Shown here piece by piece: positions 10,429 through 61,434 of a stretch of 64,000 nucleotides of DNA (within the stretch, counting starts at the first letter, position 1; each line of letters starts with the position of its first letter). The notes under the pieces were generated by a model. It was given only the letters and a program-made list of their open reading frames with translations, did not search any database and had not been told where the DNA came from. The stretch spans positions 59,639 through 123,638 of the forward strand of contig JADGRH010000001.1 in assembly GCA_017881075.1 (NCBI GenBank). The letters are read 5' to 3'. Made by a program: the position numbers and the translations under genes. The stretch comes from Minisyncoccota bacterium. Lineage in GTDB: Bacteria > Patescibacteriota > Minisyncoccia > Phycocordibacterales > CAJBRS01.

Positions 10429-10458
10429 TATCTTCCGATCTCCGATATCGGAAGATTT
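10429..10458. repeat. REP hairpin (family 1): atcttccgat-ctccgat-atcggaagat
   Basis: 10-bp inverted repeat arms atcttccgat/atcggaagat enclosing the tccgatatcgga core, immediately 5' of the RAYT start. Confidence 0.7.
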
Positions 10459-10512
10459 AGTATAATAATAGCAGATGAAATATCCTTAAAGATTTTATGA
10501 AAATTTCTTTTT

Positions 10513-10558
10513 ACACTAGTCCGATATCGGAGAATGGAGGATTCATTATACTAGTGAT
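10513..10558. repeat. REP hairpin (family 1) with outer cactagt/actagtg inverted repeat
   Basis: 'cactagtccgatatcggagaatggaggattcattatactagtg' contains the perfect tccgatatcgga core and 7-bp outer inverted repeats. Confidence 0.6.
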
Positions 10559-10598
10559 TATTTGTTATAATATGGAGTATAAATTAATCAATTAGATT

Positions 10599-12124: not shown

Positions 12125-12129
12125 ATTGA

Positions 12130-12804: not shown

Positions 12805-12908
12805 CATCGTCATAAGCGGAACCTACCGCTTTAAAACAGACTAAGACTTGGGCAAACGCCCCGGAGTGGTCTGTTTTAAGGCGCGTAGGTGAGCATTATG
12901 ACGATGAT
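12804..12908. repeat. ~100-nt imperfect palindromic element between rpe and tkt
   Basis: Outer arms atcgtcataa (12804-12813) / ttatgacgat (12896-12905). Inner arms aaaacagac / gtctgtttt and cctaccgc / gcgcgtagg. No coding potential on the forward strand. Confidence 0.5.
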
Positions 12909-12925
12909 AATAGTATAATTGAATT

Positions 12926-13792: not shown

Positions 13793-14804
13793 TCTAAACC
13801 CCAAAATTTTTGATAAAGATGTAGAACAAGTGCCGATCCGAAAAGGATTCGGCGAAGGGCTTCTCATTGCCGGAGAAAAAAATGAAAATGTTGTCGGGCT
13901 TTGCGCTGATTTAACAGAGTCAACACAAATGCATCTTTTCAAACAAAAATTTCCAAATCGATTCGTTCAAGTCGGTGTGGCCGAGCAGAATTTAGCCACC
14001 GTTGCTTCCGGTATGACCGCTATGGGAAAGATCCCGTTCATATCTTCTTACGCCATGTTCAGTCCCGGCCGCAATTGGGAGCAGATCCGTACCACTATTT
14101 GCTATAACAATGCTAACGTCAAAATTGCCGGCAGCCACGCCGGAGTTTCGGTCGGGCCTGATGGCGGGAGCCATCAGGCCCTTGAAGACATCTCTATTAC
14201 GAGAGTAATCCCTCGAATGACAGTCATTTCGCCTTGTGATGCCATTGAAGCCAGAAAAGCTACTCTCGCCGCGGCCGAGATGGTGGGGCCTGTTTATATC
14301 CGTCTTGCTCGCGAGAAAACTCCCATCATCACTACCGAAGAGACACCTTTTGAGATCGGCCTTGGTCAAATATTTTATGATTCGGATGAGAGGGGTTCGA
14401 CCTCTAAAATTGAGGGGTCGAACCCCTCCAAAAGGGCGGGGATCATTGCCACGGGTGCTCTTGTTTACCAAGCAATAATAGCAGCTAAAGAATTGGAAAA
14501 GGAAGGGATTTCAGTCAAAGTTTTAAATCTTGCCACCATCAAACCACTTGATGAAGCTGCTATCTTGCTCTTGGCAAAAGAGACGAGAGCTATCGTTACT
14601 GTAGAAGAACATCAGATCAATGGGGGAATGGGTTCGGCTGTGGCCGAAAGTTTGGCTAAACATTTTCCAGTACCAGTGGAATTCATTGGTGCCAAAGATA
14701 AGTTTGGTCAGTCCGGAACTCCAGCAGAACTGATTGAGCACTATGGCATGGGCATCGATTCCATCAAAAAAGCAGTGAAGGATGTCTTAGCCCGAAAAAA
14801 ATAA
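13785..14804 (+). CDS. Transketolase, C-terminal (pyrimidine-binding) subunit, carrying an in-frame palindromic insertion
   Basis: 'FVQVGVAEQNLATVASGM...' Pyr-domain signature. Residues ERGSTSKIEGSNPSKR are encoded by a 13-bp perfect inverted repeat. Confidence 0.85.
   Translation: MNNLNPKIFDKDVEQVPIRKGFGEGLLIAGEKNENVVGLCADLTESTQMHLFKQKFPNRFVQVGVAEQNLATVASGMTAMGKIPFISSYAMFSPGRNWEQIRTTICYNNANVKIAGSHAGVSVGPDGGSHQALEDISITRVIPRMTVISPCDAIEARKATLAAAEMVGPVYIRLAREKTPIITTEETPFEIGLGQIFYDSDERGSTSKIEGSNPSKRAGIIATGALVYQAIIAAKELEKEGISVKVLNLATIKPLDEAAILLLAKETRAIVTVEEHQINGGMGSAVAESLAKHFPVPVEFIGAKDKFGQSGTPAELIEHYGMGIDSIKKAVKDVLARKK
14390..14428. repeat. Perfect 13-bp inverted repeat (gaggggttcgacc ... ggtcgaacccctc, 13-nt spacer) lying in frame inside the tkt C-subunit gene
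   Basis: Direct inspection: 14390-14402 is the reverse complement of 14416-14428. Confidence 0.8.
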
Positions 14805-14836
14805 GCGAAATTGTAAGCTTCGTATTAATTTCGTAC

Positions 14837-15829
14837 CTAGATTTTCACCGGTGCCCAACCGTCGGGCTTCTTTTTTAACCAGGCCTCGATTCCAGATTGT
14901 GAGAGCAGGCCTTTTTGGGCGCCCACTTCTTGCACTACAGACATGGCATTTATCGATCCCCATTGAAGAGCCTCCCCTGTAGACTTGCCGAGAATGATGG
15001 CACTGGTAAAGGTAGAAGCAAAAGCATCTCCGGCACCGGTTCTTTCGTATGGTGGTTTTGGATCGGGATAGGGTTTCATAAACCAACTGTCAGTTCCATC
15101 ATAAGCATATGCGCCATTTGGTCCGTCAGTTATCACCACAATCTTCGGTCCCAGATCAGCCATCATTTTTAATAAGATTTTAACATCCGATTCCGCAGTC
15201 TCTAATATTTTTTGAGATTCTTGAACATTACAAAAAAAAAGTTCACTGCGAGCATAAATATCTTTCAGTTTTTCTTTTCCTAATTTAATATCAAAAACTC
15301 CCGGTTGAAATACGAGCTTAATCTTTGAATGTTCTTTCAAATAGGAAATAATCTTTTCATACATCGCCGAGGCCCCTTCTCGCAGAGAGCTAAGATAAAT
15401 AAATTTCGGTTCTCCAACGTTTGGTAATTCGTACTCGTATTCCTCATGTTTTATCAGTATGGTTCGCTCATCATGGAACCAAAGGACATAATGATGGTTG
15501 GTCTTCATGTCCTGGTTGATCTTGATAAAAGTGGTATCTACGGCGTTTTGGTGTAGGCTCTCCAAGCAGTCTTTGCCTAATTGATCATCCCCTAGATTAG
15601 AGATTAAGGCCGATTTCAAGCCAAGACGAGAGGCGGAAACTGCCGCATTAGGGCTATTTCCAACGGCGTTCACAATCTCTTCAAATTCGTACGGGATCTT
15701 ACTGGCAAAGGAAAGACAGAGCTTCTCGCTAGTGTGTTCTGCATTCCAGAGATCCTCAGCCTGCTCTAATCGAATAAAAGTATCGACTACGGTATCTCCC
15801 AAGGCGATGAAATCAAAGTCATTTTTCAT
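14837..15829 (-). CDS. PfkB-family carbohydrate/nucleoside kinase (ribokinase-like)
   Basis: C-terminal 'TGAGDAFASTF' anion-hole/ATP motif and N-terminal 'ALGDTVVD' of the ribokinase fold. 330 aa. Confidence 0.7.
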   Translation of the reverse strand: MKNDFDFIALGDTVVDTFIRLEQAEDLWNAEHTSEKLCLSFASKIPYEFEEIVNAVGNSPNAAVSASRLGLKSALISNLGDDQLGKDCLESLHQNAVDTTFIKINQDMKTNHHYVLWFHDERTILIKHEEYEYELPNVGEPKFIYLSSLREGASAMYEKIISYLKEHSKIKLVFQPGVFDIKLGKEKLKDIYARSELFFCNVQESQKILETAESDVKILLKMMADLGPKIVVITDGPNGAYAYDGTDSWFMKPYPDPKPPYERTGAGDAFASTFTSAIILGKSTGEALQWGSINAMSVVQEVGAQKGLLSQSGIEAWLKKKPDGWAPVKI

Positions 15830-15860
15830 GAGAATATTATATCAGAAGTTATGTTAAAAT

Positions 15861-16733
15861 ATGATTATGCATTCGCTTAAATATCACCTAGAACAGGCGG
15901 TAAAAAATAAGGTGGCTATTGGCCATTTTAATATTTCCAACATTGAGGGTTTATGGGCCGTTTTTAATGCGGCCAAGGCTTTAAATCTGCCGGTCATTGT
16001 TGGCACATCCGAGAAGGAGCGTGATTTTATCGGTCTAAAACAGTCGGTAGCTTTGATTCGTAGTTTGCGGGAAGAATTTGATTATCCGATCTTTCTCAAC
16101 GCCGATCATACTTATTCATTTGAAAAAGTGAAGGAAGCGGTGGACGCGGGCTACGATGCCGTCATTTACGATGGGGCAGAACAACCCCTTGAAGAAAATA
16201 TAAAAATAACTAGGCAGTGTGTTGAATATGCCAGAAGTAAAAATCCGAACATTGTGGTGGAAGGGGAGCTCGGCTACAAAGGAACTTCTTCTCAAGTCCT
16301 GGATTCAATTCCAAAAGGCGTGGAACTAGATAAGGAATATTTAACCAGCGTAGAGGAAGCGGCTCGATTTGTAAAAGAAACGGGAGTGGATCTTTTGGCT
16401 CCAGCCATAGGTAATTTTCATGGAATGCTCTCAAGTGGACATGACCCAGCCTTGAATATTGATGTGGCCAGAGAGGTGGCAGAGGCAGCCGGTATCCCTC
16501 TGGTTCTTCATGGTGCTTCCGGCAATTCCGCCGAAGACATTAAAGCCTCCATTGACGCCGGTGTTTCCATTGTGCATGTCAGCACCGAGCTACGGGTAGC
16601 ATTCAGGAAGAGTCTTGAAGAAACTTTGGCTGCCAATCCTAAGGAGGTCGCCACTTACAAAATTTTAGGACCGTCAGTAGAGGCAGTGCAGAAAGTGGTG
16701 ACAGATAAATTAAAAATATTCAATGAAAGATGA
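15861..16733 (+). CDS. fba: Class II fructose/tagatose-bisphosphate aldolase
   Basis: 'KVAIGHFNISN', 'LNADHT', 'LHGASG' class II aldolase signatures. 290 aa. Confidence 0.8.
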   Translation: MIMHSLKYHLEQAVKNKVAIGHFNISNIEGLWAVFNAAKALNLPVIVGTSEKERDFIGLKQSVALIRSLREEFDYPIFLNADHTYSFEKVKEAVDAGYDAVIYDGAEQPLEENIKITRQCVEYARSKNPNIVVEGELGYKGTSSQVLDSIPKGVELDKEYLTSVEEAARFVKETGVDLLAPAIGNFHGMLSSGHDPALNIDVAREVAEAAGIPLVLHGASGNSAEDIKASIDAGVSIVHVSTELRVAFRKSLEETLAANPKEVATYKILGPSVEAVQKVVTDKLKIFNER

Positions 16734-47113: not shown

Positions 47114-48280
47114 ATGCTAAATTTTTTTCACAGCTTTCATGGTAATGATCTATTAGATGTTATTCTGGTAGCCCTTTTTATCTATGTTGTTTTTATTTTT
47201 ATCAAACAGACTCGCTCTTACTTCATTTTCAATACCTTTCTGCTTCTTTTTGTCATTACCTATTTGTCGCGAACACTGGACCTTGCCCTAAGTCGTAAAC
47301 TATTTGAACCGTTAGTGGCTTTTTTCGCCATCATTTTTGTAGTGGTCTTTCAGCGTGAGATCCGTCGTTTTTTTAAATGGTTTGTTATCTCCCGTAATCG
47401 ACTGGGACGAAAAACCGAAACCATGATTACAACTCGCATTACCGACGCCATTGTGGAAGCGGTGGCTATAATGGCCAAGAAGAGAACAGGGGCTCTGATT
47501 ATTCTCTCCGGCGAATATCCTTTAGATGGCGTGGTAGAAGGAGGATTTTCTCTTGGTGGAGAAGTTTCCACCCCGCTTCTTTTAAGTATCTTTGACAGTC
47601 ATACTCCGGGTCACGACGGAGCGGTGTTGATTGATAATAAACGGGTCAAGAGTTTTGGTTTACATTTGCCTCTCACTGAAGAGTTCCGCGGCTCGCCAAC
47701 CCTAATGGGAACACGTCATCGGGCAGCTCTCGGGCTTTCAGAAAGAACGGACGCCATGATTATTGTGGTCTCGGAAGAGAGGGGAGCTATCTCTATCGCT
47801 CAAAATGGGGCACTACGAACAGTCCCCGATAGTGATAGTTTGGCGACCATCATCCGTGATTTCATTAAGGAAAATCCGCAAGAGACGCATGATTTCTGGT
47901 ATTACATTGTGGTTAAAAATTTTTTTATCAAGATTCTTTCTATTGTTATTGCTCTGGCTCTTTGGATTCTTCTTGTATTTCAGGGCAATATTTCTAATCG
48001 CGAGATCACGGTGCCGATTGAATTCAGTCATATTCCGGCGAGCGTCATTGTAGAGAAAGTGATTCCACCTGAAGTGAAGATTAATGTTTCAGGCAACAGC
48101 CGTGACGTTGCCGCTCTAAAAGAACAAGATGTAAGGGTTATTATTGATCTCTCTAAAGCGGTGGAGGGTAGCGAGCAATTTGATGTCACCAAAAAGGAAG
48201 TCGTTCTGCCGTCCTATCTTAATCTAGTCAGCATCAGCCCAACCAGAACCTTGGTCGGGCTACATAAAGTCGGACCGTGA
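47114..48280 (+). CDS. cdaA: Diadenylate cyclase CdaA fused to a YbbR-like (CdaR) domain
   Basis: 3 N-terminal TM helices. DAC domain with 'TPGHDGAVLI' and 'GTRHRAALGLSERTDAMIIVVSEERG'. Then an additional TM and ~130 aa 'REITVPIEFSHIPASVIVEKVIPPEVKINVSGNSRDVAAL...' resembling YbbR repeats. Confidence 0.75.
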   Translation: MLNFFHSFHGNDLLDVILVALFIYVVFIFIKQTRSYFIFNTFLLLFVITYLSRTLDLALSRKLFEPLVAFFAIIFVVVFQREIRRFFKWFVISRNRLGRKTETMITTRITDAIVEAVAIMAKKRTGALIILSGEYPLDGVVEGGFSLGGEVSTPLLLSIFDSHTPGHDGAVLIDNKRVKSFGLHLPLTEEFRGSPTLMGTRHRAALGLSERTDAMIIVVSEERGAISIAQNGALRTVPDSDSLATIIRDFIKENPQETHDFWYYIVVKNFFIKILSIVIALALWILLVFQGNISNREITVPIEFSHIPASVIVEKVIPPEVKINVSGNSRDVAALKEQDVRVIIDLSKAVEGSEQFDVTKKEVVLPSYLNLVSISPTRTLVGLHKVGP

Positions 48281-48411
48281 GCCTGGTGGTTTTGAGTTCG
48301 AGTCCTTAACCCCCAACAAATAAATAAAAGATAATTTTAAGATAATGTTATTGACAAAATGGCTAAATAGGCGTAGTTATATATTATTATTTGCTTAATA
48401 ATTATATTGCC

Positions 48412-49557
48412 ATGAAAAAACTTCAATTTTCAGCCATATTTTTCAGCCTAATTTTGACAGTGATGTTCTTTCCACATTTCGGATTGGCTGACACCGTTGG
48501 TCTCTCTGTGAGTAGTATGAGCAATAACAGGGTTCAGATTAACGTAAATGGCGACAGTAATTATTCTGTAGATCTTTTTTACCAAGTATCTCCGTCATCG
48601 CCCACCATCCCTGTTGGTTCTATTGGCACCACCGACTCAAGTGGTTACTTTTCTGCCATTCTAAATAGTGGCAGCTACAATCTCTCATCGGGTTATAGAG
48701 TATATGTGGAAGTGAATGGCCAGCAATCAAACACCGTGATCTGGCCGTCTTCTGACAATAACAATAACGACCAAATCACTTTCAGTCAGAACAATATAGA
48801 ATTGGATTATAACCAAAGCATCACCGTAAATATTTATGGTGGCTCCGGCTCGTATTATATTTCTTCCAATTCAAATTCTGATTTTGTCAACGCCTCAATC
48901 AGCGGTAATCAAATTTATCTCTCAACTGACAATAATAATCAGTATAACGGTGACTCGGCTACCATCCGTGTCTGTTCTCGTAATGGTAATTCAAGTTGTG
49001 GTTATCTGTATGTAACCCAGAGTGGCAATAATAATAATGAACAGGTTAGTTTCAGCCAAAATAATATTAATCTCAATATCGGCCAACAAGTTCAAACCAC
49101 TATCTACGGTTCCGGCAGTTACTACATTTCTAACAATTCTAATTCAAATGTGGTCAACGCTTATCTAAACGGCAATACTCTGAATATTACAGGAAGTCAA
49201 AGTGGTTCAGCCACTATCAGAGTTTGTTCCAATAATAGTAATTCAAGTTGTGGCAATCTTCATGTCAGTGTCAGTGGCAACTATTATAATAATAACAATG
49301 GCTACTACAATAATCCTCCCATCGTCTACGTTCAGAATCCAACCACTCCTATGTATACTCAGTCTATTTATGGCGGATTAGGCACGCCGTCCGCCGGAGT
49401 ATTCTTAAGCCATGTGCCTTCAACCGGCATCAGTTTCAATCTGAAAATGGCTCTCTTTTTCATCGGCCTCTTTATGTGGAGTGCTTTCGGTGCTTTTATG
49501 ATTCTTTCCTACCAAGAAAGCAAGAAATTACTGGCTGACCTAGAAAAGAGAAATTAA
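48412..49557 (+). CDS. Secreted surface protein with repeated Ig-like modules and a C-terminal VPSTG + TM + charged-tail sorting-signal-like module
   Basis: Signal peptide from the ATG at 48412. Repeated '...ATIRVCS.N.NSSCG.L.V..SG' modules. C-terminus 'HVPSTGISFNLKMALFFIGLFMWSAFGAFMILSYQESKK...'. Confidence 0.6.
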   Translation: MKKLQFSAIFFSLILTVMFFPHFGLADTVGLSVSSMSNNRVQINVNGDSNYSVDLFYQVSPSSPTIPVGSIGTTDSSGYFSAILNSGSYNLSSGYRVYVEVNGQQSNTVIWPSSDNNNNDQITFSQNNIELDYNQSITVNIYGGSGSYYISSNSNSDFVNASISGNQIYLSTDNNNQYNGDSATIRVCSRNGNSSCGYLYVTQSGNNNNEQVSFSQNNINLNIGQQVQTTIYGSGSYYISNNSNSNVVNAYLNGNTLNITGSQSGSATIRVCSNNSNSSCGNLHVSVSGNYYNNNNGYYNNPPIVYVQNPTTPMYTQSIYGGLGTPSAGVFLSHVPSTGISFNLKMALFFIGLFMWSAFGAFMILSYQESKKLLADLEKRN

Positions 49558-51065: not shown

Positions 51066-51719
51066 ATGAAACAGTCAGTAAAGTGGTATAAACACAAAGA
51101 GACCCTTTTCATTCTGCTCTTCGTTGGTATATTTTTCGTCTCCTTTGTCATTTTGTATTTTCTGGGACTAATTCCTAATGAGTTGATTGTTGATACCAGT
51201 AAGCCGAGCGCTCTGGACCAATTGAATGAACACTCCATTGAAAGTGTTGTTGGGGGCAATAACTCGAATAATTATTCAGTCACCATTCTCCAAGAAGAGC
51301 CCATCAAGATTGAGGCGGCCACAATCGGTTTAAGTTTCAGTATTGAAAACCCGACCACTGATAATTATCAGGCTCTGGATTCGGCACTGGTGAGGGGGGC
51401 GGTCCATTATCCCGGCTCCGGTTTTCCCGGTGCAGGCAACATGTTTATTTTTGGTCACAGCACCGGCTTCAAAGTAGTGAACAACAAGGCTTATCAAGTT
51501 TTCAATAATATTCACAATCTTCAGCAAGGTGATGAAATAAAAATTTATTCCAAGGACAAAGTTTATTCATATCGTGTCAGTTCGGTGAAGTTGGAAAAAG
51601 ACAGTAATGCTTATGTCAACTTCTCCACCAATATCAACAAATTAACTCTCTCTACCTGCAACAGTTTCGGCGCGAAAGAAGATAGGTATGTTGTGGAGGC
51701 AGACTACGTTAGCAGCTAA
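51066..51719 (+). CDS. Sortase-family transpeptidase
   Basis: N-terminal TM anchor. Catalytic His in 'IFGHSTG', Cys in 'LTLSTC' (TLXTC) and Arg in 'EDRYVVEADY'. Followed by a GC-rich hairpin ggggccggcgc-gga-gcgccggcccc. Confidence 0.75.
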   Translation: MKQSVKWYKHKETLFILLFVGIFFVSFVILYFLGLIPNELIVDTSKPSALDQLNEHSIESVVGGNNSNNYSVTILQEEPIKIEAATIGLSFSIENPTTDNYQALDSALVRGAVHYPGSGFPGAGNMFIFGHSTGFKVVNNKAYQVFNNIHNLQQGDEIKIYSKDKVYSYRVSSVKLEKDSNAYVNFSTNINKLTLSTCNSFGAKEDRYVVEADYVSS

Positions 51720-51853
51720 GGGGCCGGCGCGGAGCGCCGGCCCCGTTGACTATTTCTTCATATAGTGGTAGCAATTAGAGTGGGTAAAACCAACTATTTT
51801 CAATAGAAATTTGACAAATCAATAAAACAAAAAACAAGAAAGGGCAGTTACAG

Positions 51854-53821
51854 ATGCAACAGAACGAACCAACGCAACAGATTTCACATGCTCGCCTTCA
51901 AAAACGCTACCCCACTATGAGGATCGGTGAAGATGAGGATGAGTTCGCAGTAGATCTTGACACCACGAACACTGAGAAAAAAGGGAGACCAGTTAAGGAC
52001 CTGGATCGGGGTGAAAAACAACTTCATTTCGATCATCGGCTTCTCCGATATAATAAACCTGAATTGGCTGCAATGGCCGAACCGCTTTTGCCGGGAGATG
52101 TGAGAGAGACAAGCAATCTCTCCCTTATTTCGGGAAAGACTGGCCATGAAAGCGACGCCAGTCTTCACCGGGTTGTAAAACCCGAAATGGTCGGAGACGG
52201 AGAGAGAGGACGTGCTCTGGCTGAGAGACGACAAAAGAGACGGTTTCCCCGTGAAAATTTCGGCTTAGGAAAGCTCCAAGACGATCACATCAGAATCTAC
52301 GGCAATGCCATTGACGCCTTCGGCTCTCTAGGTCTGGTTAAAGGAAAATTCGAGGAAGGTTTCATTATCGACCTCGACCAGGGTGAAATCGAAGGAAACG
52401 TCGGCGGAAAGAGTGGCTTTAATCACAACACTCACAATATCAGTAATGTCGAGGGCGATGTCACCGGAACAACAGGAAATCCCAGCGGTTTCATAACAAA
52501 GGTAAATGTCACGGATTGGGGTAACTGGGAACAGATACTTCTTCTCTTTTTCGGGTACGATCCGCTTTTGTGGGATGGAACACCTCTTCCCTCTGATCTG
52601 GCTCCTAAGCCAGGAAGCGCCGTTGATCTTTATCGAATCGCCCGAAAAGCATACGAGACTGGCGGTGGAGGTTACACCCCTGAAATCAAGGCACTCTACG
52701 ATCTCTATCGGGTTGAGCTCGCAAGGGTTTGGAAAATCGCCGAAGAGATGCAACTGCCGTGTTATCTCGATCTGGTAACGACCGCCGACTGGAATGCCGG
52801 CGACTGGGTCTATCGAGATTTTTTCGAAAAGTGCCAAGCCAGGTACGAACAAGCGAAAAAAGACGGGGTAGAAAATCCCGTGGAAACACCATTCGTCCTT
52901 GTAAGACACGAAAGTGGCAATCTTCGCACCACGATCGCCTTGTTCTCGGAACTCGACGGTCGTTCTGATGCGGAAAAACAGTGGGAACTGCCGGATGAAC
53001 CAGTCATTCGGAACATCAGCGCGACAGTGCATTGGAGATCAGAGTGGATGCCTCAAGAAGAGATCGAGTGGCGAACGCGAGCTAATGAAAAAATCTCGCG
53101 TAAGAATATTCGTCGTCAGTTGCGTGGCAAAGAACCTTTGCCTCTGTGGCCTGTTGGATCTCTGATTCCAGAATGCGTGCGGCATGGATGGGACGGGGAG
53201 AGGAAGCTCACCCTAAGGCCCATCATAGAGTTTCCTAAACAGCCCGACAGGGAGGTCTGGAACTTTAAGCCGAGATCGGAAAGTGACGAACATTTCCACG
53301 CTCGAATGTTTCGGAAATATAGGATCTGTCCGCGACACCCACCCTTCTGGATTGAGGATTTCTATGTCTCGGTACCAGTCTATGCAGGTACAGGGAAAGT
53401 GAAATACCTCATTTGTCCGAAGATGTTGAAGATGCCGCCCGGTCCGATGCTACACGTTTCTCATGTGCGTGAATTGCTTCATAGGCCAAGAGCTGAAGCT
53501 CTGGCTTATGTGGATCGTCTTCAACCCAAAAAGCCGCAACTCAGCGCTAAAGCGCTTCAGTACATTAAAGGAAAGATGAAACCTTTGCCAAAGGAAGAGC
53601 GAAGAAGTAAAGCCAAACAGAAAACCAAGACTATCCCTCGGATTTCGGAACAACCTCCGAATTTGCCGAAGGAAGTTAATCTTCCTGCTTCAGCTACAAC
53701 TTCAACTTTAGTAGCACCGGCGCCGAATTCTTCCAAAACTCCGCCGGAACCCGAGACCCCAAAGACGGGGGTAATACGACGGCTTGCGGGTGCCGCCGCC
53801 TCCTTCTACATTAGGCAATAG
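51854..53821 (+). CDS. Large (655 aa) orphan protein, first gene of a compositionally distinct island
   Basis: Long ORF with coding-like periodicity and codon usage distinct from its neighbours (more GCC/CGC/GAG/AAG). No recognisable motif. Basic, Lys-rich C-terminal region. Confidence 0.5.
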   Translation: MQQNEPTQQISHARLQKRYPTMRIGEDEDEFAVDLDTTNTEKKGRPVKDLDRGEKQLHFDHRLLRYNKPELAAMAEPLLPGDVRETSNLSLISGKTGHESDASLHRVVKPEMVGDGERGRALAERRQKRRFPRENFGLGKLQDDHIRIYGNAIDAFGSLGLVKGKFEEGFIIDLDQGEIEGNVGGKSGFNHNTHNISNVEGDVTGTTGNPSGFITKVNVTDWGNWEQILLLFFGYDPLLWDGTPLPSDLAPKPGSAVDLYRIARKAYETGGGGYTPEIKALYDLYRVELARVWKIAEEMQLPCYLDLVTTADWNAGDWVYRDFFEKCQARYEQAKKDGVENPVETPFVLVRHESGNLRTTIALFSELDGRSDAEKQWELPDEPVIRNISATVHWRSEWMPQEEIEWRTRANEKISRKNIRRQLRGKEPLPLWPVGSLIPECVRHGWDGERKLTLRPIIEFPKQPDREVWNFKPRSESDEHFHARMFRKYRICPRHPPFWIEDFYVSVPVYAGTGKVKYLICPKMLKMPPGPMLHVSHVRELLHRPRAEALAYVDRLQPKKPQLSAKALQYIKGKMKPLPKEERRSKAKQKTKTIPRISEQPPNLPKEVNLPASATTSTLVAPAPNSSKTPPEPETPKTGVIRRLAGAAASFYIRQ

Positions 53822-53840
53822 TAGGGAAATAACGATAGTC

Positions 53841-53870
53841 GGCGTCGCGTCTTGCGCGACGCCTTTTTAA
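53841..53870 (+). terminator. Rho-independent terminator
   Basis: ggcgtcgcg-tctt-gcgcgacgcc + ttttt. Confidence 0.75.
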
Positions 53871-53960
53871 TTTTCCATTGACACCAGCTACTTATCATGA
53901 TAGATATCTGACTAGATATTGTAGGAAAAAACAACGAACAAAAACAAAAAGAAAGGTATT

Positions 53961-55424
53961 ATGATTAGTTTTTTGATAACACCGTGCAGGAAAATTTGGC
54001 CGAAAAAGCTGAAACCATGGCTTACGGCCACCATAGCCGTCGATATCGGCACCGACAATCTCGACATTTGTCTATGTGATTCAGACGGAAAGCCCGATGT
54101 CGACAAGATTCTTCAGCTGCCCACCGTTGCGCTCAAAATGGCTGATGGAGAAACTCTTCTCGCCATTGGGGATGAAGCTCGAGCGGTGATAGATCGTGTC
54201 TCTAATGATGCGGAAGAAAAAAGGCGTGTGGAGGTGATCCAGCCGGTCAGAAACGGCAAGATCGTCAATCGTCCAGTGGCGACAGCTCTTCTTAAGATGG
54301 GCCTCCGAGAGTTTTGGAAGCAGTATCCTCAAATCACGGATCAAACGCAAATCCGCCTGATTGTCACAGTGCCAATCAAGTTATCTCATGTCCAGGAACG
54401 AGAGGTAGTCAATGTGGCGCAAAACGCGACCACGAGGAATGACGATAGCAGCACCACTTCCGTCTCGGTTATCGATCAGCCGATGGCAGCAGCCATTGGT
54501 TCGGGAGTTTATAACCCGAAGAAAGTTATTGGGTCACTGATTTGTGACATCGGAGGGGGTACTCACCAGGTGATGGCCGTTTCCGGAGTAGCAGGTAACA
54601 TGGCCTCCAGGCTTTTGGAAGAAGGAGGCAACGCTTATACGGAGGTCATACAGGAGTATTGCCGCACCAAGCACAAGATCGATCCTGACTTCAACGAAGC
54701 CGAAAGGGTAAAGTGCGAGATCGGAGCAGCCGAGGTGGTTCCTGAAAAAGACGAGAACAACAAGATGACAGATGGTAATCGAACTACCAGAATCTATGGC
54801 AAACATCTCGAGACGCACTTGGGTGATTCGGTTGAATTGACCAGCGAGGAGTTGGTACCGGTCTTTGCTTCAATCCTTGGTCGTTTCGTGAGACTGATCA
54901 AGGAAGTGGGAGATGTCGCGCCCAAAGGAGTGGTTGCTGACATGGCAAAGCCAAACTCGGGTCTTTATCTTGCAGGCGGAGGCTCTCTGCTTCGCGGTCT
55001 GCCAGAATACCTGAAGAAAGAAACTGGTTACAATGTCTATGACATCCCGAATCCTCAAAGAGTTGTTGTGATTGGGGCGGCCATGGCACTGGGGAGTCCC
55101 ATCCTCTCCTTCAACTTTGTCCGGGAGCCTATCATTGAAGATCCAAAACGAAAGGGTTTGCCGAAAGCTGTCAAACGACCGTCGTTCAGCAACTTGAGCG
55201 GTCAAAGTCCGACCTTCAGATGCTCAACTCTTCCATCGGAGGATGGAGAATCGGATCCGGTCACCCAATACTCGAAGGGCACAACTTCTGATGGTAAGAC
55301 CTTCGAGGAGAAGGCCTTGCTCCTGGGTGTAGGCGTGAAGTATCTCGACGATCTCACACCCGCTGAGAAGAGACGACTCGCGGCGCAGAAGAAAATGCCG
55401 GTAATGGAGACGCAGACAGCCTAA
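53961..55424 (+). CDS. Divergent MreB-like actin-family ATPase with ~90-aa C-terminal extension
   Basis: 'IAVDIGTDNL' (phosphate 1), 'IDQPMAAAIGSG', 'GSLICDIGGGTHQVMAVS' (phosphate 2), 'GGNAYTEVIQEY...ERVKCEIGAA', 'GLYLAGGGSLLRGLPEYLKKETG' (adenosine motif). These align in the MreB order. Confidence 0.7.
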   Translation: MISFLITPCRKIWPKKLKPWLTATIAVDIGTDNLDICLCDSDGKPDVDKILQLPTVALKMADGETLLAIGDEARAVIDRVSNDAEEKRRVEVIQPVRNGKIVNRPVATALLKMGLREFWKQYPQITDQTQIRLIVTVPIKLSHVQEREVVNVAQNATTRNDDSSTTSVSVIDQPMAAAIGSGVYNPKKVIGSLICDIGGGTHQVMAVSGVAGNMASRLLEEGGNAYTEVIQEYCRTKHKIDPDFNEAERVKCEIGAAEVVPEKDENNKMTDGNRTTRIYGKHLETHLGDSVELTSEELVPVFASILGRFVRLIKEVGDVAPKGVVADMAKPNSGLYLAGGGSLLRGLPEYLKKETGYNVYDIPNPQRVVVIGAAMALGSPILSFNFVREPIIEDPKRKGLPKAVKRPSFSNLSGQSPTFRCSTLPSEDGESDPVTQYSKGTTSDGKTFEEKALLLGVGVKYLDDLTPAEKRRLAAQKKMPVMETQTA

Positions 55425-55442
55425 GGGTAGTAATTAGTCAGC

Positions 55443-55472
55443 GCCGCGGAAACCTAGTTTCCGCGGCTTTTT
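55443..55472 (+). terminator. Rho-independent terminator
   Basis: gccgcggaaacc-tag-tttccgcggc + ttttt. Confidence 0.8.
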
Positions 55473-55596
55473 ATATAAAGTAGCTTCTACGGTAAAATTT
55501 AATTGACGTATAAGATTTAGTGTGATAAGGTCAAAAAGAATTTTCATTTCGTCGAATTCTCGACGAAACAGCTCTTAAACAAAGAAAGGAACATAA

Positions 55597-56319
55597 ATGG
55601 CTAAACCAGCCGTAAAGAAAGTCTCAGTGCAGAGGCGCGCGGTTCAATTGGTCAGTCAATTCATTTGCGCTGGCCGCAAGTTTCATTGGCGCAGGGTCGG
55701 AATTACTCTTCTCATGCTTGTAGTTTTTCCAATCTTGATGTGCACTCTTTGGCATCACGGAGGAAAAATCGCTTCTCTCGGGTGGCGTACAACCACTCAA
55801 GGATTGCAATATTTTGGTAGTCACATGCAGATGGCAACGAAGTTGGCAAAAGTGCAGACAGCGCTCAACCTTACCGACTACGATCTTCGAGTGACACAGC
55901 AAAAGTTTGCCAACAAAACCGAAGAAGCGGCGGAAAATGCAGACGAGGCAAAGGCCGCGCACAAATCGGAAGCGGAGTTGCGTGAGTCCCTAGCTGCGAA
56001 GAAGGAATCTTTGGACGCCGAGAAAAAAGCCACCACTAGACTTGAGGGAGAGGTCACACAGGCAAACCTTAATGGCCAGAAGCGGGTGGAGAAAGCTCAA
56101 GCGGAAGCAGCTTCAAAGATCGCTGATGCCAATGGTGTAGCAGCGGCTGCCGTTAATCGCGCCAAAGTAGCCGAAGCTGCGGTAAACAAACTTCCAGACG
56201 AAAGTTTGAGCAAAGCCAAAGCCGAAGCGGAGCAAAAAAACGCCAGATTGGAAGCGGAGCTTAGACAATCGAGAGCGCGACACCTCGCAGACGTCAAAGA
56301 ATTACTGAAGGGCTATTAG
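55597..56319 (+). CDS. Membrane-anchored coiled-coil protein (island gene)
   Basis: One TM helix ('ITLLMLVVFPILMCTLW'), then a ~170-aa Ala/Glu/Lys-rich coiled coil. Followed by the terminator at 56334-56360. Confidence 0.45.
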   Translation: MAKPAVKKVSVQRRAVQLVSQFICAGRKFHWRRVGITLLMLVVFPILMCTLWHHGGKIASLGWRTTTQGLQYFGSHMQMATKLAKVQTALNLTDYDLRVTQQKFANKTEEAAENADEAKAAHKSEAELRESLAAKKESLDAEKKATTRLEGEVTQANLNGQKRVEKAQAEAASKIADANGVAAAAVNRAKVAEAAVNKLPDESLSKAKAEAEQKNARLEAELRQSRARHLADVKELLKGY

Positions 56320-56382
56320 TGCTCAATCAGGACGCAGTGCGGAACACCGATTCCCGCACTGCTTTTTATTTTAGGGCTGTTT

Positions 56383-56411
56383 CAAATTGCCCTTGACTTT
56401 ATTTCAGGGAT
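56383..56411 (+). promoter_or_regulatory. Candidate sigma70 promoter GCCC-TTGACT-N17-TAATAA (extended -10 TGa)
   Basis: ttgact at 56383-56388. tgataataa at 56403-56411. Confidence 0.5.
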
Positions 56412-56512
56412 GTGATAATAAGAGAAATGAATCGTCAATAGTTAATAAATCTTGAACAAGTATTCAGGGTTTATGTTGACAAACAAACAACGCAGACAAC
56501 CCGGGAGGGTTT

Positions 56513-57097
56513 ATGAATATATCGAAAACAAACAAGCCATTCGCTCTCATTCTCGCGCTCATCGCGGCCGTTTCCTTCGTCGCCACCCCCGTGGCGTTCG
56601 CTGGCGACAGGAACGAAGCGAAGCCGAAGCAATCGGCGATACCTACTAAAGCAGCCGCCAAGAAACTACCAAACGAATTCACTGGCATTCCTGAAGCCAC
56701 GCCAGTGGATCAAATGATCGCAATTGATACGACACCGACCGGAAACGATCCGAACAAAAAGAAACTCCAACAGCTAGCTACAGCTGCCGACCCCACGGCG
56801 TCAGCAACTCCGGACCCTACGGTGGAAGCCAAAGCTGGGATCGTCGCCGAGATTCGCAGGATGGCGAAAGCCAAGATTGACGAGATCACAGCCGAAAAAG
56901 ATGATGTTTCGAGCAAGTACAACGAACTGGTCAAAGGCTACAACAATCTGCTCACGCAACTAAACACTGCGAATGGCGATAAGGCTAAGTTGCAAGCCAA
57001 TTACAACGTCTTGGCGGCAGCGTTGGATGGAGCCGACGACATCAAAACGACGCTCAAGCCGAAAGAAAACCCGGCACCGACGGTCGTTAAGAAATAA
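56513..57097 (+). CDS. Secreted coiled-coil protein (island gene)
   Basis: Signal peptide 'ALILALIAAVSFVATPVAFA', then a predicted helical/coiled-coil C-terminal half. Terminator at 57116-57152. Confidence 0.45.
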   Translation: MNISKTNKPFALILALIAAVSFVATPVAFAGDRNEAKPKQSAIPTKAAAKKLPNEFTGIPEATPVDQMIAIDTTPTGNDPNKKKLQQLATAADPTASATPDPTVEAKAGIVAEIRRMAKAKIDEITAEKDDVSSKYNELVKGYNNLLTQLNTANGDKAKLQANYNVLAAALDGADDIKTTLKPKENPAPTVVKK

Positions 57098-57169
57098 GAC
57101 ACGATCAATTTCGATCAGCGAGCGCAGGGAAGTCCTTTGCGCTCGCTATTTTATTTAGAGACGAAGCCC

Positions 57170-57198
57170 TTGACTTTCTACTACTAGTATGATAATAT
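57170..57198 (+). promoter_or_regulatory. Candidate sigma70 promoter GCCC-TTGACT-N17-TAATAT (same architecture as 56383)
   Basis: ttgact at 57170-57175. tgataatat at 57190-57198. Confidence 0.5.
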
Positions 57199-57256
57199 AC
57201 AGGTAAATCAGGTTCTAGACACTATGTTTAGGGCCGCAACACGGAGAAGTATACAG

Positions 57257-58057
57257 ATGAAAAAACAGATCTTTGCAACACTGATCATGGCCCTAGTGGC
57301 TGGATCGATGATCAATAACGTCTCAGCCCAGACTTCAGCATCAGTGGCCGCTGACGCTGACGTTGTGGCACGCGCGGAAAAATTCAAGGCAAACAGGGTG
57401 CATATCGCAACTCTGGAGCAGGAAAATGCTCGGCTCACAGCAAACGCCGAAGTCTACAAAGAAGCTTTGGGAACAGAGCCCGTTGTGACTTCCTCGCCTG
57501 CGGCAAGCACAACCGCTTCACCAAGCGCGACGACAGACACCAAAGCGGAGAGCGCGACGAAGGACGCCACCGAAGCCGAGATCAAGAGATTGGTCGAGGA
57601 CAAACGGCGCGAAATCGCGGCAAGGAAAAATCTTCCTGGCCCGACAGCGAACAACACCTCTGCGGCACCGGCGAGCACGCCCGCAGACCCAATGGATCGT
57701 GAAGGCTACACCAAGACCTTGGTGGGTAGCTACATCCAGAAGGTGGAAGACCCGCGTTCTAAGCCCGTCGAAATCTTGGCCCGCAAGATTACCCTGGTTG
57801 GAGAAACCGAGGGAAAGATGCGCGAGCTTTGTTTCTGGACTGATGGGCACCACAACATTACCACGGGGTATGTGAGTGGTGGGGTGAAGGCGCATTTGAA
57901 TCGTCCGGATCATCAAACCTGGAAAAGGGGAGAGATCCGCGACGGACAGACAGGCAACATTCTTGTCGTCTATTACGTCGATTCGCCGGAAGGGAAGGTG
58001 GTCACAGCCTCCCGCCGGGAGTACCATCAAAAGCCGTCAAAGAATCAGCGTCGATAG
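57257..58057 (+). CDS. Secreted protein with coiled-coil N-terminal part, Ala/Thr/Ser-rich linker and a C-terminal globular domain (island gene)
   Basis: Signal peptide from the internal Met (MKKQIFATLIMALVAGS). C-terminal region 'CFWTDGHHNITTGYVSGGVKAHLNRPDHQTWKRGEI' has no match I recognise. Terminator at 58080-58107. Confidence 0.45.
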   Translation: MKKQIFATLIMALVAGSMINNVSAQTSASVAADADVVARAEKFKANRVHIATLEQENARLTANAEVYKEALGTEPVVTSSPAASTTASPSATTDTKAESATKDATEAEIKRLVEDKRREIAARKNLPGPTANNTSAAPASTPADPMDREGYTKTLVGSYIQKVEDPRSKPVEILARKITLVGETEGKMRELCFWTDGHHNITTGYVSGGVKAHLNRPDHQTWKRGEIRDGQTGNILVVYYVDSPEGKVVTASRREYHQKPSKNQRR

Positions 58058-58116: not shown

Positions 58117-58144
58117 ATTTAAAAACTTGACAAATTAATGATAT
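58117..58144 (+). promoter_or_regulatory. Near-consensus sigma70 promoter TTGACA-N16-TATAAT
   Basis: ttgaca at 58117-58122 and tataat at 58139-58144, about 65 nt upstream of the 58212 gene. Confidence 0.55.
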
Positions 58145-58211
58145 AGTGTATAATACTTAAATCATTGATTTTTAGCCAAAAAAGCATAATTTAAAAATAA
58201 TCAACAAAAAC

Positions 58212-59663
58212 ATGAACAAAATTTTAAAAACAATTAAATACAGCTTAGGAATTATGGTAATCCTTGCCTTTGCTTCTATTTCTATGGGGCAAGTTGTTTA
58301 TGCGGATACCCCATCTGATTATGGATCAGGAAGCTACTACGACTACACTCCTGATTATGGATCTGGAAGTTATTACAACTATACCCCTGATTATGGATCC
58401 GGCAGTTACTATAATTATACTCCTGACTATGGCTCAGGCAGTTACTACGATTCTTCTCCGACCTACACTGATAATACTTCCGGCAATGGTTACGGCACCG
58501 ACTATGGTTATTACTACGGAGACAACTGTGGCTCTAGTTGCGACACTACTAATTATGGCACTGACCAGGGTTATTACTATGGTAATAACTGTGATACTAG
58601 TTGCGACACCGCTAGCAATGATTATGGTTACGGTGGCTCTGGTGGTGGCTACGGAGGCTGTTCTTACGGTTGTGGTAGTAGTAACTCCGGAAGTTATGGC
58701 ATGCCATCCTACAATTCCTACGGCACTCCCTCTTACAATCCACCATCTTACAATTACAACCCCACCCCTACCTATTACAATCCTCCATCTTCTAACGGCT
58801 CCGGCGCTATCGTAGTGAATAACAACAATAACAATACAAATAACAACACCAACAACAATAATGTGGTAGTGAATATTCCTCCGGTCAATACTGTCACTCC
58901 TCCGCCACCCCCACCTCCTCCTGTCTACAACAACCTTACTGCTTACTGTGTTGGCACCCCTTCTAATCCTCAAATTGGAGATAATGTTACATGGAGAGTC
59001 TATGCCTCGGGGGGTAATGGTAACTACAATTATTCTTGGAGAGGAGATGTCTCTGGTAATAACACAACTGAAAACGCCAACTATTATAATAGTGGTACAG
59101 AGAGTGCTTCAGTCAGGGTAACAACCTCAAATGGCGATAGCTTTACTACCGACCAATGTGAAGTAAACGTGCAACCACGAGGATCAACCATTTCTAATGT
59201 TACGGTCTATACTCCACCAACAGGCACTCCTAGCGCAGGTGTATTCCTTAGCCAAATTCCTGCTACTGGCATCAGCCCTACGATGAAATTGGCTCTCTTC
59301 ATTCTCGGACTCTTTCTCTGGAGCGCCTTCGGAGCCTACATGATTCTGGAACGACGCAAGATGGGTACATTGGCTACTGCTGGTATCAATGCTTCCGACA
59401 TGGAAGATGAGGCCGACGAAGTGGTCACTGAACCGACGGAATCAATTCCAGCTGACGATCTTGAAAGTAATCTTTCTTTCCGAGCGCGCGAGAACAATGT
59501 TCTCATCTCTCGAGATGGTCTTGCCGTCATAATGAATCGAGCCAATGGCAATCAGGGCGAGGCTGAAAACATCCTTTCACAACTCGTGAGCAAGGTTTCC
59601 AGAAATGACGGAGATTACGCTACACTGAACGGAGAAAAAATTAATAAATTACTTAATAGTTAA
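58212..59663 (+). CDS. Secreted Tyr/Gly/Ser-rich repeat protein with a C-terminal IPATG + conserved TM module followed by a ~105-aa cytoplasmic tail
   Basis: Signal peptide. 4 tandem 36-nt repeats encoding YGSGSYY(D/N)YTPD. Cys-rich and Asn-rich stretches and a Pro8 run. 'TPSAGVFLSQIPATGISPTMKLALFILGLFLWSAFGAYMILERRK' is shared with the 48412 gene. Confidence 0.6.
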   Translation: MNKILKTIKYSLGIMVILAFASISMGQVVYADTPSDYGSGSYYDYTPDYGSGSYYNYTPDYGSGSYYNYTPDYGSGSYYDSSPTYTDNTSGNGYGTDYGYYYGDNCGSSCDTTNYGTDQGYYYGNNCDTSCDTASNDYGYGGSGGGYGGCSYGCGSSNSGSYGMPSYNSYGTPSYNPPSYNYNPTPTYYNPPSSNGSGAIVVNNNNNNTNNNTNNNNVVVNIPPVNTVTPPPPPPPPVYNNLTAYCVGTPSNPQIGDNVTWRVYASGGNGNYNYSWRGDVSGNNTTENANYYNSGTESASVRVTTSNGDSFTTDQCEVNVQPRGSTISNVTVYTPPTGTPSAGVFLSQIPATGISPTMKLALFILGLFLWSAFGAYMILERRKMGTLATAGINASDMEDEADEVVTEPTESIPADDLESNLSFRARENNVLISRDGLAVIMNRANGNQGEAENILSQLVSKVSRNDGDYATLNGEKINKLLNS

Positions 59664-59666
59664 CAA

Positions 59667-59713
59667 AAAAGAAAACAGCGGCCGCCTAAAGGCGGCCGCT
59701 GTTTTCTTTTTGG
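59667..59713. terminator. Bidirectional Rho-independent terminator overlapping the thrS stop
   Basis: aaaagaaaacagcggccgcc-taaa-ggcggccgctgttttcttttt. Confidence 0.8.
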
Positions 59714-61434
59714 AATTTTTCGATCAATTTTGCTATTTTAATTGTCTCCGCATTTCCTTTGTCACGGCTCTCTAGTGTTACGGTCTGCGACCCAACCTCT
59801 TTGTCACCAATGACGGCCATGTAGGGGACTTTCTCTACCTTTCCTTCTCGTATCTTCTTGCCGAGACTTTCATTAGAATCATCCAACTCCGCTCTGATGC
59901 CGGCGCTTTTCAATTGCTGAAATACTTCGCCGGCATACTCTTGATGTGTCTCACCAATAGAGAGGATCTTTATCTGAACAGGGGAGAGCCAGAAGGGGAA
60001 TGCACCGGCGTAATGTTCGATCAAAAAACCGATGAATCTCTCATGAGTACCAAGAGGGGCGCGGTGAATGCAAAGAGGAGTTTCCTTTTCTCCTTTAGCA
60101 TTAACATAATTTAAATCGAATCGTTTTGGTACCGAAAAATCTACTTGATTAGTAGCCAGAGTAAACTCCCGGCCAATAGCACTCCAAACTTCCACGTCAA
60201 TCTTAGGGCCATAGAAAGCCGCTTCGTTGGCTATTTCTACATAAGGAATTTTTGATTCCACCAAAACATCTCGAACCATTTTTTCCGTTTCAATCCAGAG
60301 CAGAGGCTCATCAACATATTTCTCGCCCAGTCTGGCCGGATCATGAGTGGAAAAACGCATCTGATATTTTTCTATACCAAAAATCTTAAAATATTTAAGA
60401 TACATTTCATTTACTTGTCGAAACTCTTCCGCAAATTGATCCTTACTGCAATAAATATGGGCATCATTCATTTGCATAGAACGCGTCCTCATGATGCCGA
60501 AAAGTTCTCCCGATTTTTCCTGCCTGTAAACAGTGCCATATTCAGCCAGGCGCAGAGGTAGGTCTTTATAACTCGGATGCATCGCCGCAAATATTTTATG
60601 ATGATGCGGACAATTCATGGCCTTTAGATAATACTTTCCGCCCTCATATTCCATTGGTGGAAACATGCTCTCCTGGTAATAGGGAAGATGGCCGCTTTTT
60701 ATATACATTGATTCCTTGGCGATGTGAGGTGTGCGAACTCTTTGGTATCCTGCTTCAAACTCTGTTTCTTTGGCAAGCTTTTCCAGCTCCTCAATAATAA
60801 TGGCTCCGTTCGGAAGCCAGAGCGGCAGCCCTGGCCCGGTATCTTCATCAAAAACAAAAATTTTTAATTCACGGCCGAGTTTTCGATGATCTCGTTTTTC
60901 GGCCTCAATCTGTTGTTTCTCATAATTTTCCAATTCTTCTCTTGTTTCAAACGCTAACCCATAAATACGAGTGAGCATTTTGTTTTTCTCGTCTCCGCGC
61001 CAATAGGCACCGGCGATGTGGGAGAGCTTAAATGCATCAATATTGACATCCTGCATGTTGTCAACGTGTCCGCCGCGACAGAGGTCGGTGAATTTTCCAG
61101 CAGTGTAAAGAGTGATCGGCTCCTTTTTGGCGACAATCTCATCAATCAATTCCAGTTTGTAGGGATTGTCGGTGAATAGGGCCCTCGACTCGCTCGGGCT
61201 CACTTCTTTATGCTCAAACCCTTTCCACCCATTATAAATTTTCTTCATCTTCTTCTCGATCTCCTTCAGGTCTTTATCCGAAATAGGGGACACGAAATCA
61301 AAGTCGTAATAGAACCCATTCTCAATAGCTGGCCCGATAGTATTTAAAGCATCAGGATGCAATTCCAAAACTGCCGCCGCAAGCAAATGTGCCAGCGAAT
61401 GTCGCATTTTAGCCAGTTTGTCGTTTGAATCCAT
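59686..61434 (-). CDS. thrS: Threonine--tRNA ligase (short form lacking the N-terminal TGS domain)
   Basis: Editing-domain 'HSLAHLLAAAV', class II motifs ('FRQVNEMY...', 'HRAPLGTHERFIGFLIEHYAGAFPFWLSP') and a C-terminal anticodon-binding domain. 582 aa. Confidence 0.85.
   Translation of the reverse strand: MDSNDKLAKMRHSLAHLLAAAVLELHPDALNTIGPAIENGFYYDFDFVSPISDKDLKEIEKKMKKIYNGWKGFEHKEVSPSESRALFTDNPYKLELIDEIVAKKEPITLYTAGKFTDLCRGGHVDNMQDVNIDAFKLSHIAGAYWRGDEKNKMLTRIYGLAFETREELENYEKQQIEAEKRDHRKLGRELKIFVFDEDTGPGLPLWLPNGAIIIEELEKLAKETEFEAGYQRVRTPHIAKESMYIKSGHLPYYQESMFPPMEYEGGKYYLKAMNCPHHHKIFAAMHPSYKDLPLRLAEYGTVYRQEKSGELFGIMRTRSMQMNDAHIYCSKDQFAEEFRQVNEMYLKYFKIFGIEKYQMRFSTHDPARLGEKYVDEPLLWIETEKMVRDVLVESKIPYVEIANEAAFYGPKIDVEVWSAIGREFTLATNQVDFSVPKRFDLNYVNAKGEKETPLCIHRAPLGTHERFIGFLIEHYAGAFPFWLSPVQIKILSIGETHQEYAGEVFQQLKSAGIRAELDDSNESLGKKIREGKVEKVPYMAVIGDKEVGSQTVTLESRDKGNAETIKIAKLIEKFQKENSGRL

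Follow-up and report, generated by a model that had tools for sequence, protein, structure and literature searches.

An orphan protein of a three-member family beside a divergent MreB-like actin in a five-gene block of a Candidate Phyla Radiation chromosome

Partner proteins are known for several bacterial actins: RodZ and MreC/MreD for MreB, MamJ for MamK, and ParR for ParM. The known adaptors of type II partition systems (ParR/AlfB type) are small and are encoded downstream of the actin gene, and Lys/Pro-rich tails are found in histone-H1-like bacterial DNA binders. This report concerns a stretch of 64,000 nucleotides from contig JADGRH010000001.1, hereafter the window, which threonyl-tRNA synthetase (ThrRS) and DnaE place in the Paceibacteria/Nomurabacteria part of the Candidate Phyla Radiation (CPR). 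In it, a gene for a 655-residue orphan protein lies directly upstream of the gene for a divergent, MreB-like actin of 487 residues and opens a block of five genes. Genomic islands are frequent in Patescibacteria (PMC12455944), and the block is filled in one related genome and missing from two others. The reading that we prefer, at a probability of roughly 0.3, is that the orphan may work in the cytoplasm as a partner of the divergent MreB-like actin encoded next to it, within a module associated with the envelope.

The orphan gene and its family

The gene at 51854-53821 (+) starts with ATG and runs for 655 codons, and its translation holds all three peptides quoted in a preliminary description of the locus (WNAGDWVYRDFFEKCQARYEQ, HWRSEWMPQEEIEWRTRANEK and KKPQLSAKALQYIKGKMKPLPKEERRSKAKQKTKTIP), which had reported the open reading frame (ORF) correctly. 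The same description had called it a confidently coding orphan, and this is backed by length, by codon-position GC content and by two homologous ORFs. At about 50% GC, 655 open codons would arise by chance with a probability of (61/64)^655, or about 2e-14 per start (our own arithmetic, from a stop frequency of 3/64), and GC at the three codon positions (GC1 0.59, GC2 0.42, GC3 0.49) shows the coding pattern of the neighbouring genes. A purine-rich AAAGGG, the ribosome-binding site, sits 8-9 nt 5′ of the ATG. A promoter-like site read from the sequence at 51746-51774 (+) consists of TTGACT, 17 nt ending in TGG, and TAGCAA; its -10 element is weak and a consensus promoter scan did not report it, and the same layout, TTGACT-N16/17(..TGG)-TAAnAc, stands 5′ of both homologues. 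A strong intrinsic terminator with a 10-bp stem, eight of whose pairs are G-C, followed by TTTTT, was found by a terminator scan at 53841-53863 (+). A chance ORF or decaying pseudogene, for which nothing speaks beyond missing annotation and the lack of known domains, is effectively refuted by conservation: the homologues match at E 1e-66 and 8e-14, 62 columns are invariant across the three proteins, and all of them begin with M-[NQ]-Q. Uninterrupted length, coding-type GC across codon positions and the presence of promoter-like site, ribosome-binding site and terminator argue in the same direction.

The stretch 51854-53821 is thus a genuine gene, predicted to encode a soluble, basic cytoplasmic protein (74.8 kDa, isoelectric point 9.0, 14 Trp). 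Neither a signal peptide nor a transmembrane (TM) segment nor a helix-turn-helix was found in it, and the earlier remark that it lacks a TM helix is borne out by its top 19-residue Kyte-Doolittle window, which reaches only 0.92. The absence of a P-loop also stands: a regular-expression search for Walker A ([AG]x4GK[ST]) had no match in any of the three family members, and the GGKSG of the orphan is SRKTG and SSKDG in the two homologues. A basic, K/P-rich C-terminus, likewise described before, is confirmed by the charge profile, with a net charge of +8 to +9 per 40 residues over residues ~541-600, and by a similar tail in both homologues.

An exhaustive phmmer/HMMER search found two relatives only among 1.84 billion representatives, which sets the known family size at three (P0001, the orphan itself, with P0125 and P0126). 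P0125 (570 aa, 38% identity to the orphan, E 1e-66) is located in locus L082 of GCA_038215155.1, a Paceibacteria genome and the closest available, and P0126 (537 aa, 29% identity, E 8e-14) in locus L084. A word-indexed (k-mer-prefiltered) search of 5.8 billion clusters returned the query alone, whether it started from the single sequence or from the profile of the three members. No relative turned up when the protein, or the alignment of the three members (A1), was used in pattern scans against GTDB genomes, JGI metagenomes and IMG/VR. Run with filters off, the A1 profile detected no paralogue within the window and no member in any of 108 other loci; none was present in the other ThrRS loci or in 28 MreB loci.

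The alignment opens with a variable N-terminal region (residues ~1-105; 51854-52168, +), which is missing in P0125 and is unrelated low-complexity sequence in P0126. It is followed by a conserved Gly-rich block (residues ~129-233, GKFEEGFII...EGNVGGKSG...ISNVEGDVTG...DWGNWE; 52238-52552, +) with invariant G164, K165, G181, V183, K186, G188, N198, G201, G208, W222, G223 and E226. A helical stretch separates this block from the best-conserved motif of the family, residues 367-385 (LDGRSDAEKQWELPDEPVI, or LDGRSDEEKxFELPPEPVI; 52952-53008, +), in which L367, D368, R370, S371, D372, E374, K375, P380, P383 and I385 are invariant. A basic, Trp-rich insertion (residues ~395-475; 53036-53278, +) is present in P0001 and P0125, not in P0126, and leads into a conserved W-x-E-x-FY-x-SVP-x-YAGTGK block. 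All three members then carry a K/P-rich, basic, low-complexity tail (residues ~556-640 of the orphan by its charge profile; 53519-53773, +), and end in a short C-terminal segment that is hydrophobic and basic. None of the His, Tyr or Cys columns is invariant across the three, and the sole invariant acidic cluster is D368-x3-D372-x-E374. A HAD-like DxDG reading of LDGRSD was rejected, as the first Asp is variable and no hydrophobic strand lies ahead of it.

No family match for the orphan protein was found in Pfam, NCBIfam, PHROGs, PADLOC or the sequences of the Protein Data Bank (PDB), and no housekeeping enzyme family came up in these library searches. Pfam gave nothing when applied to each family member, to the family profile and to seven isolated segments; PHROGs gave only inconsistent single-member matches with E above 0.03; and in the PDB sequence search the single sequence retrieved only noise and the family profile no entry at all. 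Residues 129-233 look Gly/Val-periodic by eye, and a bactofilin reading of them was rejected because the isolated Gly-rich segments of the three members had no match to PF04519 at E up to 10, in a search whose HMMER filters may hide very weak matches. Comparison of A1 with an MreB alignment (A2) by hhalign gave a probability of 0.2%, which shows no profile similarity of the family to MreB-type actins (actin/ASKHA fold). A Foldseek search with a predicted structure, proposed in the preliminary description, was carried out against the PDB and returned nothing below E = 1 on a low-confidence model. HIV integrase occupied its top rows, which carry no weight (E above 1, TM-score 0.04, 27 aligned columns, redundancy noise). 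Rfam had nothing near the orphan gene, and the accession numbers had no match in the literature.

By the tests applied, the orphan family appears to fit no known kind and to be new at family level, through absence of evidence; unplaceable proteins are common in such thinly sampled genomes, and the novelty is of a weak kind. At 90% identity, each protein of the block is a singleton, and so are the sortase, surface protein, CARDB protein and ThrRS of the host, an organism that has been sampled once. Because even its ThrRS is such a singleton, with no 90%-identity relative among ~15 billion proteins, much of the orphan status reflects sparse sampling.

A five-gene block at a variable site

The order of genes in the window is CARDB surface protein (-), sortase, orphan, 487-aa MreB-like protein, p240, p194, p277, p483, ThrRS (-) and DnaE (-), and the block extends from the orphan to p277 (51854-58057). 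The preliminary description had placed the orphan at the head of an island, and this holds: it is the first of five consecutive plus-strand genes with the top GC contents of the window, and the block is lacking in two related loci, L017 and L008. The five have the highest GC among the 47 ORFs of the window (0.50-0.55 vs 0.43 ± 0.03), and their GC3 is 0.49-0.61 vs 0.42 ± 0.04 for the window ORFs (Mann-Whitney p for block vs other ORFs, 1e-6 for GC and 2e-5 for GC3). In both the window and L082, where it spans 10001-15973, the block exceeds its flanks by ~0.09 in GC and ~0.13 in GC3, and in L082 the GC offset climbs along the block as it does in the window. This persistent bias may reflect a single old gain, or related blocks may have been acquired at the site on two separate occasions. 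Outside the block, the window is ordinary chromosome, with GAPDH, RpiB, Rpe, transketolase, aldolase and other housekeeping enzymes.

Locus L082 has the same layout as the window, namely a 410-aa CARDB homologue (-), sortase, the 570-aa orphan homologue, a 509-aa MreB-like protein, proteins of 290, 210, 243 and 487 aa, ThrRS (-), a 133-aa gene and DnaE (-). Identities in the flanks (DnaE 80%, sortase 61%, CARDB protein 56%, p483 43%) compare with 36% for the orphan and 29% for the MreB-like protein within the block. The remaining three block proteins barely align with their partners: local alignment gave z = 8.2 for p240 and the 290-aa protein, z = 2.8, a weak positional similarity, for p194 and the 210-aa protein, and z = 3.8 for p277 and the 243-aa protein; each positional pair is nevertheless best on the diagonal and has the same topology. 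Loci L017 and L008, whose DnaE is 64-67% identical, carry DnaE, ThrRS, a p483 homologue, sortase and the CARDB protein, and there the gap between the p483 homologue and the sortase measures 100 nt (L017) or 86 nt (L008), an empty site with the conserved p483 promoter only. Because the site is filled in the window and L082 and empty in L017 and L008, the block is, judged from these sequences, a true insertion or deletion whose genes are homologous as a set between two genomes. We infer that the genes arrived at the site together, or disappeared together from the relatives, and that they now persist in the chromosome as a stable accessory module.

The MreB-like gene (53961-55424, +) has its own promoter and a terminator at 55443-55467 (+). 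Its 487-aa product matches MreB_Mbl (PF06723) over the whole core with E 4e-45 and scores 154 to 159 bits against NCBIfam MreB cut-offs of 293-515 bits; it is 28-33% identical to MreBs, and phage and plasmid actins are no closer (26-29%). The nucleotide-binding motifs DxGT, DIGGGT and GGGSLL are retained, and because they are kept the protein is probably functional as an ATPase or filament former. In it and in its L082 orthologue (11810-13339), the Glu of the VE(K/R)RA motif is replaced by Gln, the residue found at the corresponding place in eukaryotic actin. The two proteins further share a C-terminal extension of 110-130 aa (~110 in the window protein) with a common GK(T/A)(F/Y) element, and a metagenome scan with the two proteins returned only ordinary MreBs at 26-30% identity, with no orphan nearby. 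By sequence, they appear to form a distinct, undescribed MreB subfamily. A weak match to the PHROG 'partition protein' (E 9e-6) was also recorded. The ORF listing has no mreC, mreD or rodA beside the gene. MreB occurs in 75-95% of groundwater Patescibacteria genomes and is among the genes exchanged between Patescibacteria (PMC8672522, PMC12455944), which makes it probable that the island gene is an additional, divergent paralogue.

The topology of the remaining three block proteins was read from their sequences. p240 (55597-56319, +) has a basic N-terminus, one hydrophobic helix and an Ala/Glu/Lys-rich, coiled-coil-like region, and no family match in Pfam or NCBIfam; p194 (56513-57097, +; terminator at 57117-57147) has a signal-peptide-like N-terminus and a coiled-coil-like region; and p277 (57224-58057, +), the last block gene, encodes a signal-peptide-like N-terminus, a low-complexity linker and a C-terminal globular part. 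A 32-nt promoter-like sequence (GCCCTTGACTTT...TGATAATA) recurs ahead of p194 and p277, at 56389-56420 and 57166-57197, and a weaker third copy lies at 56356.

Roles weighed for the orphan protein

Taken together, the parts of the block would comprise two cytoplasmic proteins (the orphan and an actin-family ATPase), a single-pass membrane protein (p240), its basic N-terminus in the cytoplasm and its coiled coil outside, and two secreted proteins (p194 and p277), amid sortase and surface-protein genes. In such a module, the orphan could act on the cytoplasmic side as a scaffold or adaptor for the MreB-like filament. Its conserved core might bind either the filament or the part of the membrane protein that reaches into the cytoplasm, and the K/P-rich tail might bind an anionic surface, either membrane or nucleic acid; both the physical coupling and the role of the tail are what we infer for a protein whose gene, family and block are read directly from the genomes. 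A more specific version seems unlikely: that the orphan is a new regulator or membrane adaptor of a horizontally acquired, Gln-type MreB paralogue, in an undescribed trans-envelope cytoskeletal module at the surface of an episymbiotic CPR cell that serves, for example, host attachment. If the orphan does work with the MreB-like protein, the five genes would amount to a compact, lineage-specific bacterial actin system with partners unrelated to RodZ, MreC, ParR or MamJ, in organisms for which cell biology and attachment to the host have hardly been explored.

Several observations weigh against a partnership with the actin. Every block gene has its own TTGAC(A/T) promoter-like site and G+C-rich terminator, so that the five are predicted to be separately transcribed and offer no operon argument. 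The two loci that link orphan and actin are orthologous and count as effectively one independent co-occurrence, and on the contig of P0126 the gene 3′ of the homologue encodes a polytopic membrane protein, with no actin homologue. Pfam and NCBIfam showed no similarity of the orphan to RodZ, MreC, MreD, bactofilin, ParR or other known actin partners. AlphaFold2 yielded no usable structural model, with a predicted local distance difference test (pLDDT) of 34.4 for the single sequence and 38.8 for the three-sequence alignment, the model used for Foldseek. A C-terminal amphipathic helix that would target the membrane was set aside, as the hydrophobic moment of the last segment reaches only the 81st-94th percentile. 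Separate transcription units and the third family member without an actin neighbour are also what would be expected of a stand-alone accessory protein (a regulator, for example, or a protein of defence or conflict) whose only tie to the MreB-like gene is a common chromosomal spot that is variable and horizontally exchanged. Such a role is little less likely than a partnership with the actin: the site is variable, the block is compositionally foreign in both genomes, its divergence is very fast, as is typical of conflict genes, and islands are frequent in the phylum (PMC12455944). On the other side, PADLOC-DB has no match for the orphan, for either homologue or for the MreB-like protein, and only coiled-coil noise for p240 and p194. 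Moreover, five-gene order and architecture are kept although three of the proteins barely align, and because they outlast this near-unalignable divergence, selection on the gene set is suggested. Less probable still is an adaptor that couples DNA to the actin-like filament, as in ParR/ParM and AlfB/AlfA, or a nucleoid-associated protein that acts through the K/P tail. The basic protein, the Lys/Pro-rich tail in all three members and the neighbouring ATPase with its weak partition-protein match would fit this, whereas centromere-like repeats and iterons are absent from the intergenic regions of the block, the profile score of the actin homologue is that of an MreB (E 4e-45) and not of ParM, Alp or AlfA, the orphan is large and upstream, unlike the known small, downstream adaptors, and the block is chromosomal without replicon functions.

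The preliminary description had considered a replication-initiator, primase or integrase role conceivable for the first gene of an acquired element, and this now looks very unlikely. The reading draws on a GC-rich block that is an insertion or deletion relative to L017 and L008, on a GC3 excess in both genomes that would fit two acquisitions at one site, and on a 20-nt imperfect direct repeat (17/20) at 51804-51823 and 58120-58139, found nowhere else in the window, which brackets the block. Against it stands the chemistry of the family. As no His, Tyr or Cys is invariant, mechanisms of the HUH, tyrosine-recombinase and zinc-primase kinds are disfavoured, and the spacing is not DDE-like because the sole invariant Asp residues are four positions apart. 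The alignment, lacking invariant His and Tyr, gives no sign of an HUH motif with catalytic Tyr, and none of the three members matches a Rep family profile; zinc-binding Cys/His clusters and Toprim and AEP primase motifs were not found, with no invariant Cys/His and no profile match; and Pfam gave no match to Phage_integrase, Resolvase or Recombinase at E up to 5-10. No member matches any Pfam, PHROG, NCBIfam or PDB entry, and the HIV integrase rows from a pLDDT 39 model leave this unchanged. A tblastn search of 50,697 phage and 72,556 plasmid records had no match to the orphan, and the IMG/VR scan gave no relative. A look for iterons or an AT-rich origin had been proposed for 51.72-51.85 and 53.82-53.96 kb. 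Neither is seen there, the content of these regions being limited to terminator hairpins, one promoter-like site and a leader rich in A and C; direct or tandem repeats and iterons are absent from 51700-51870 and 53810-53975. Pfam and PHROGs detect no integrase, transposase or Rep gene in the block, and the one tRNA of the window lies 27 kb away. As for the 20-nt repeat, we do not favour reading it as an att site or element end. By our own estimate several 17/20 pairs are expected from an all-against-all comparison of 8 kb, and ~20 repeats of similar quality were listed; the right copy coincides with the -35 region of the promoter of p483, conserved in L082, L017 and L008; the left copy lies 3′ of the promoter that accompanies the family gene in L082 and L084, and is hence inside the unit; and the repeat is absent from L082. 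It is probably not an element end. Because the block occupies the same site in a genome whose proteins are 29-36% identical, an old chromosomal block fits better than a recent arrival. The orphan probably does not serve as a DNA replication or recombination enzyme.

Flanking features and known systems compared

The neighbourhood of the block codes for cell-surface functions, with the sortase, the CARDB protein and proteins with an LPXTG-like motif. On the left, outside the block, lies the gene of the 217-aa sortase (51066-51719, +; Pfam Sortase, E 6e-20), and its terminator hairpin, a perfect 11-bp inverted repeat (GGGGCCGGCGC...GCGCCGGCCCC), is at 51720-51744 (+). On the right, also outside, p483 (58212-59663, +) encodes a surface protein of 483 aa, rich in repeats, in which a hydrophobic helix comes after a PSAGVFLSQIPATG motif. 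Its promoter, TTGACA-N16-TATAAT at 58127-58154, has conserved counterparts in all four loci, and p483 homologues adjoin thrS in L082, L017, L008 and others. In-frame tandem repeats of 36 nt and 63 nt within p483 (58315-58448 and 58490-58609) encode PDYGSGSYYxYT-type repeats. A module of ~50 aa, GTPSAGVFLSxxPxTGIS plus a hydrophobic helix, is common to the surface proteins at 58212-59663 and 48391-49557 (66% identical) and is also carried by the 487-aa protein of L082; it resembles an LPXTG-type sorting signal beside a sortase gene, but in p483 ~100 residues follow the helix, unlike in a classical C-terminal signal. A perfect hairpin (59666-59711; 20-bp stem) lies where p483 and thrS converge; it looks like a bidirectional terminator and gave only sub-threshold noise in Rfam. 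ThrRS of the window (59686-61434) is 54% identical to that of L082 (17593-19353), although the adjacent DnaE is 80% identical, and ThrRS of more distant genomes reaches 66-73%; thrS of the L082 lineage may be a xenologous replacement. Farther away, the window holds a very long ORF of 3194 aa (22-9606, +), an IS200-like Y1 transposase gene beside its end (9742-10428, -; Pfam Y1_Tnp, E 2.7e-9), and a 388-aa membrane protein (47114-48280, +) with a diadenylate-cyclase-like motif read by eye (HDGAVLI ... RHRAALG).

The block resembles the ORFans of genomic islands in Patescibacteria (PMC12455944) in being a set of compositionally deviant hypothetical genes on a CPR chromosome, absent at the same site in relatives. 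It differs in having no mobility genes, tRNA or convincing terminal repeats and in being kept in a second, diverged genome. Two empty and two filled sites offer a natural comparison for the origin of islands in CPR genomes without recognisable mobility genes. With iteron-type Rep proteins, phage integrases and primases, the orphan shares its place as the long, basic first gene of an inserted block; it differs from them in lacking a family match, catalytic His, Tyr or Cys, iterons or an origin, and phage or plasmid relatives.

The neighbouring actin, for its part, keeps the MreB_Mbl core and the DxGT, DIGGGT and GGGSLL motifs of canonical MreB (PF06723), from which it is set apart by 28-33% identity, a score below the cut-offs, Gln for Glu, the C-terminal extension and the lack of adjoining mreC, mreD or rodA. 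Among the partners of bacterial actins, RodZ differs from the orphan, which has no helix-turn-helix or TM segment, and ParR differs from it in being small and encoded downstream, whereas the orphan has 655 residues and precedes the actin gene. RodZ, MreC/MreD, MamJ and ParR all lack sequence similarity to the orphan, which in addition is separately transcribed and is associated with its actin in one orthologous pair of loci. By analogy, the orphan may be likened to MamJ, as a cytoplasmic protein with long, charged, low-complexity regions encoded beside an MreB-family actin gene, and p240, a predicted single-pass membrane protein with an extracytoplasmic coiled coil, would have a topology similar to that of MreC and RodZ.

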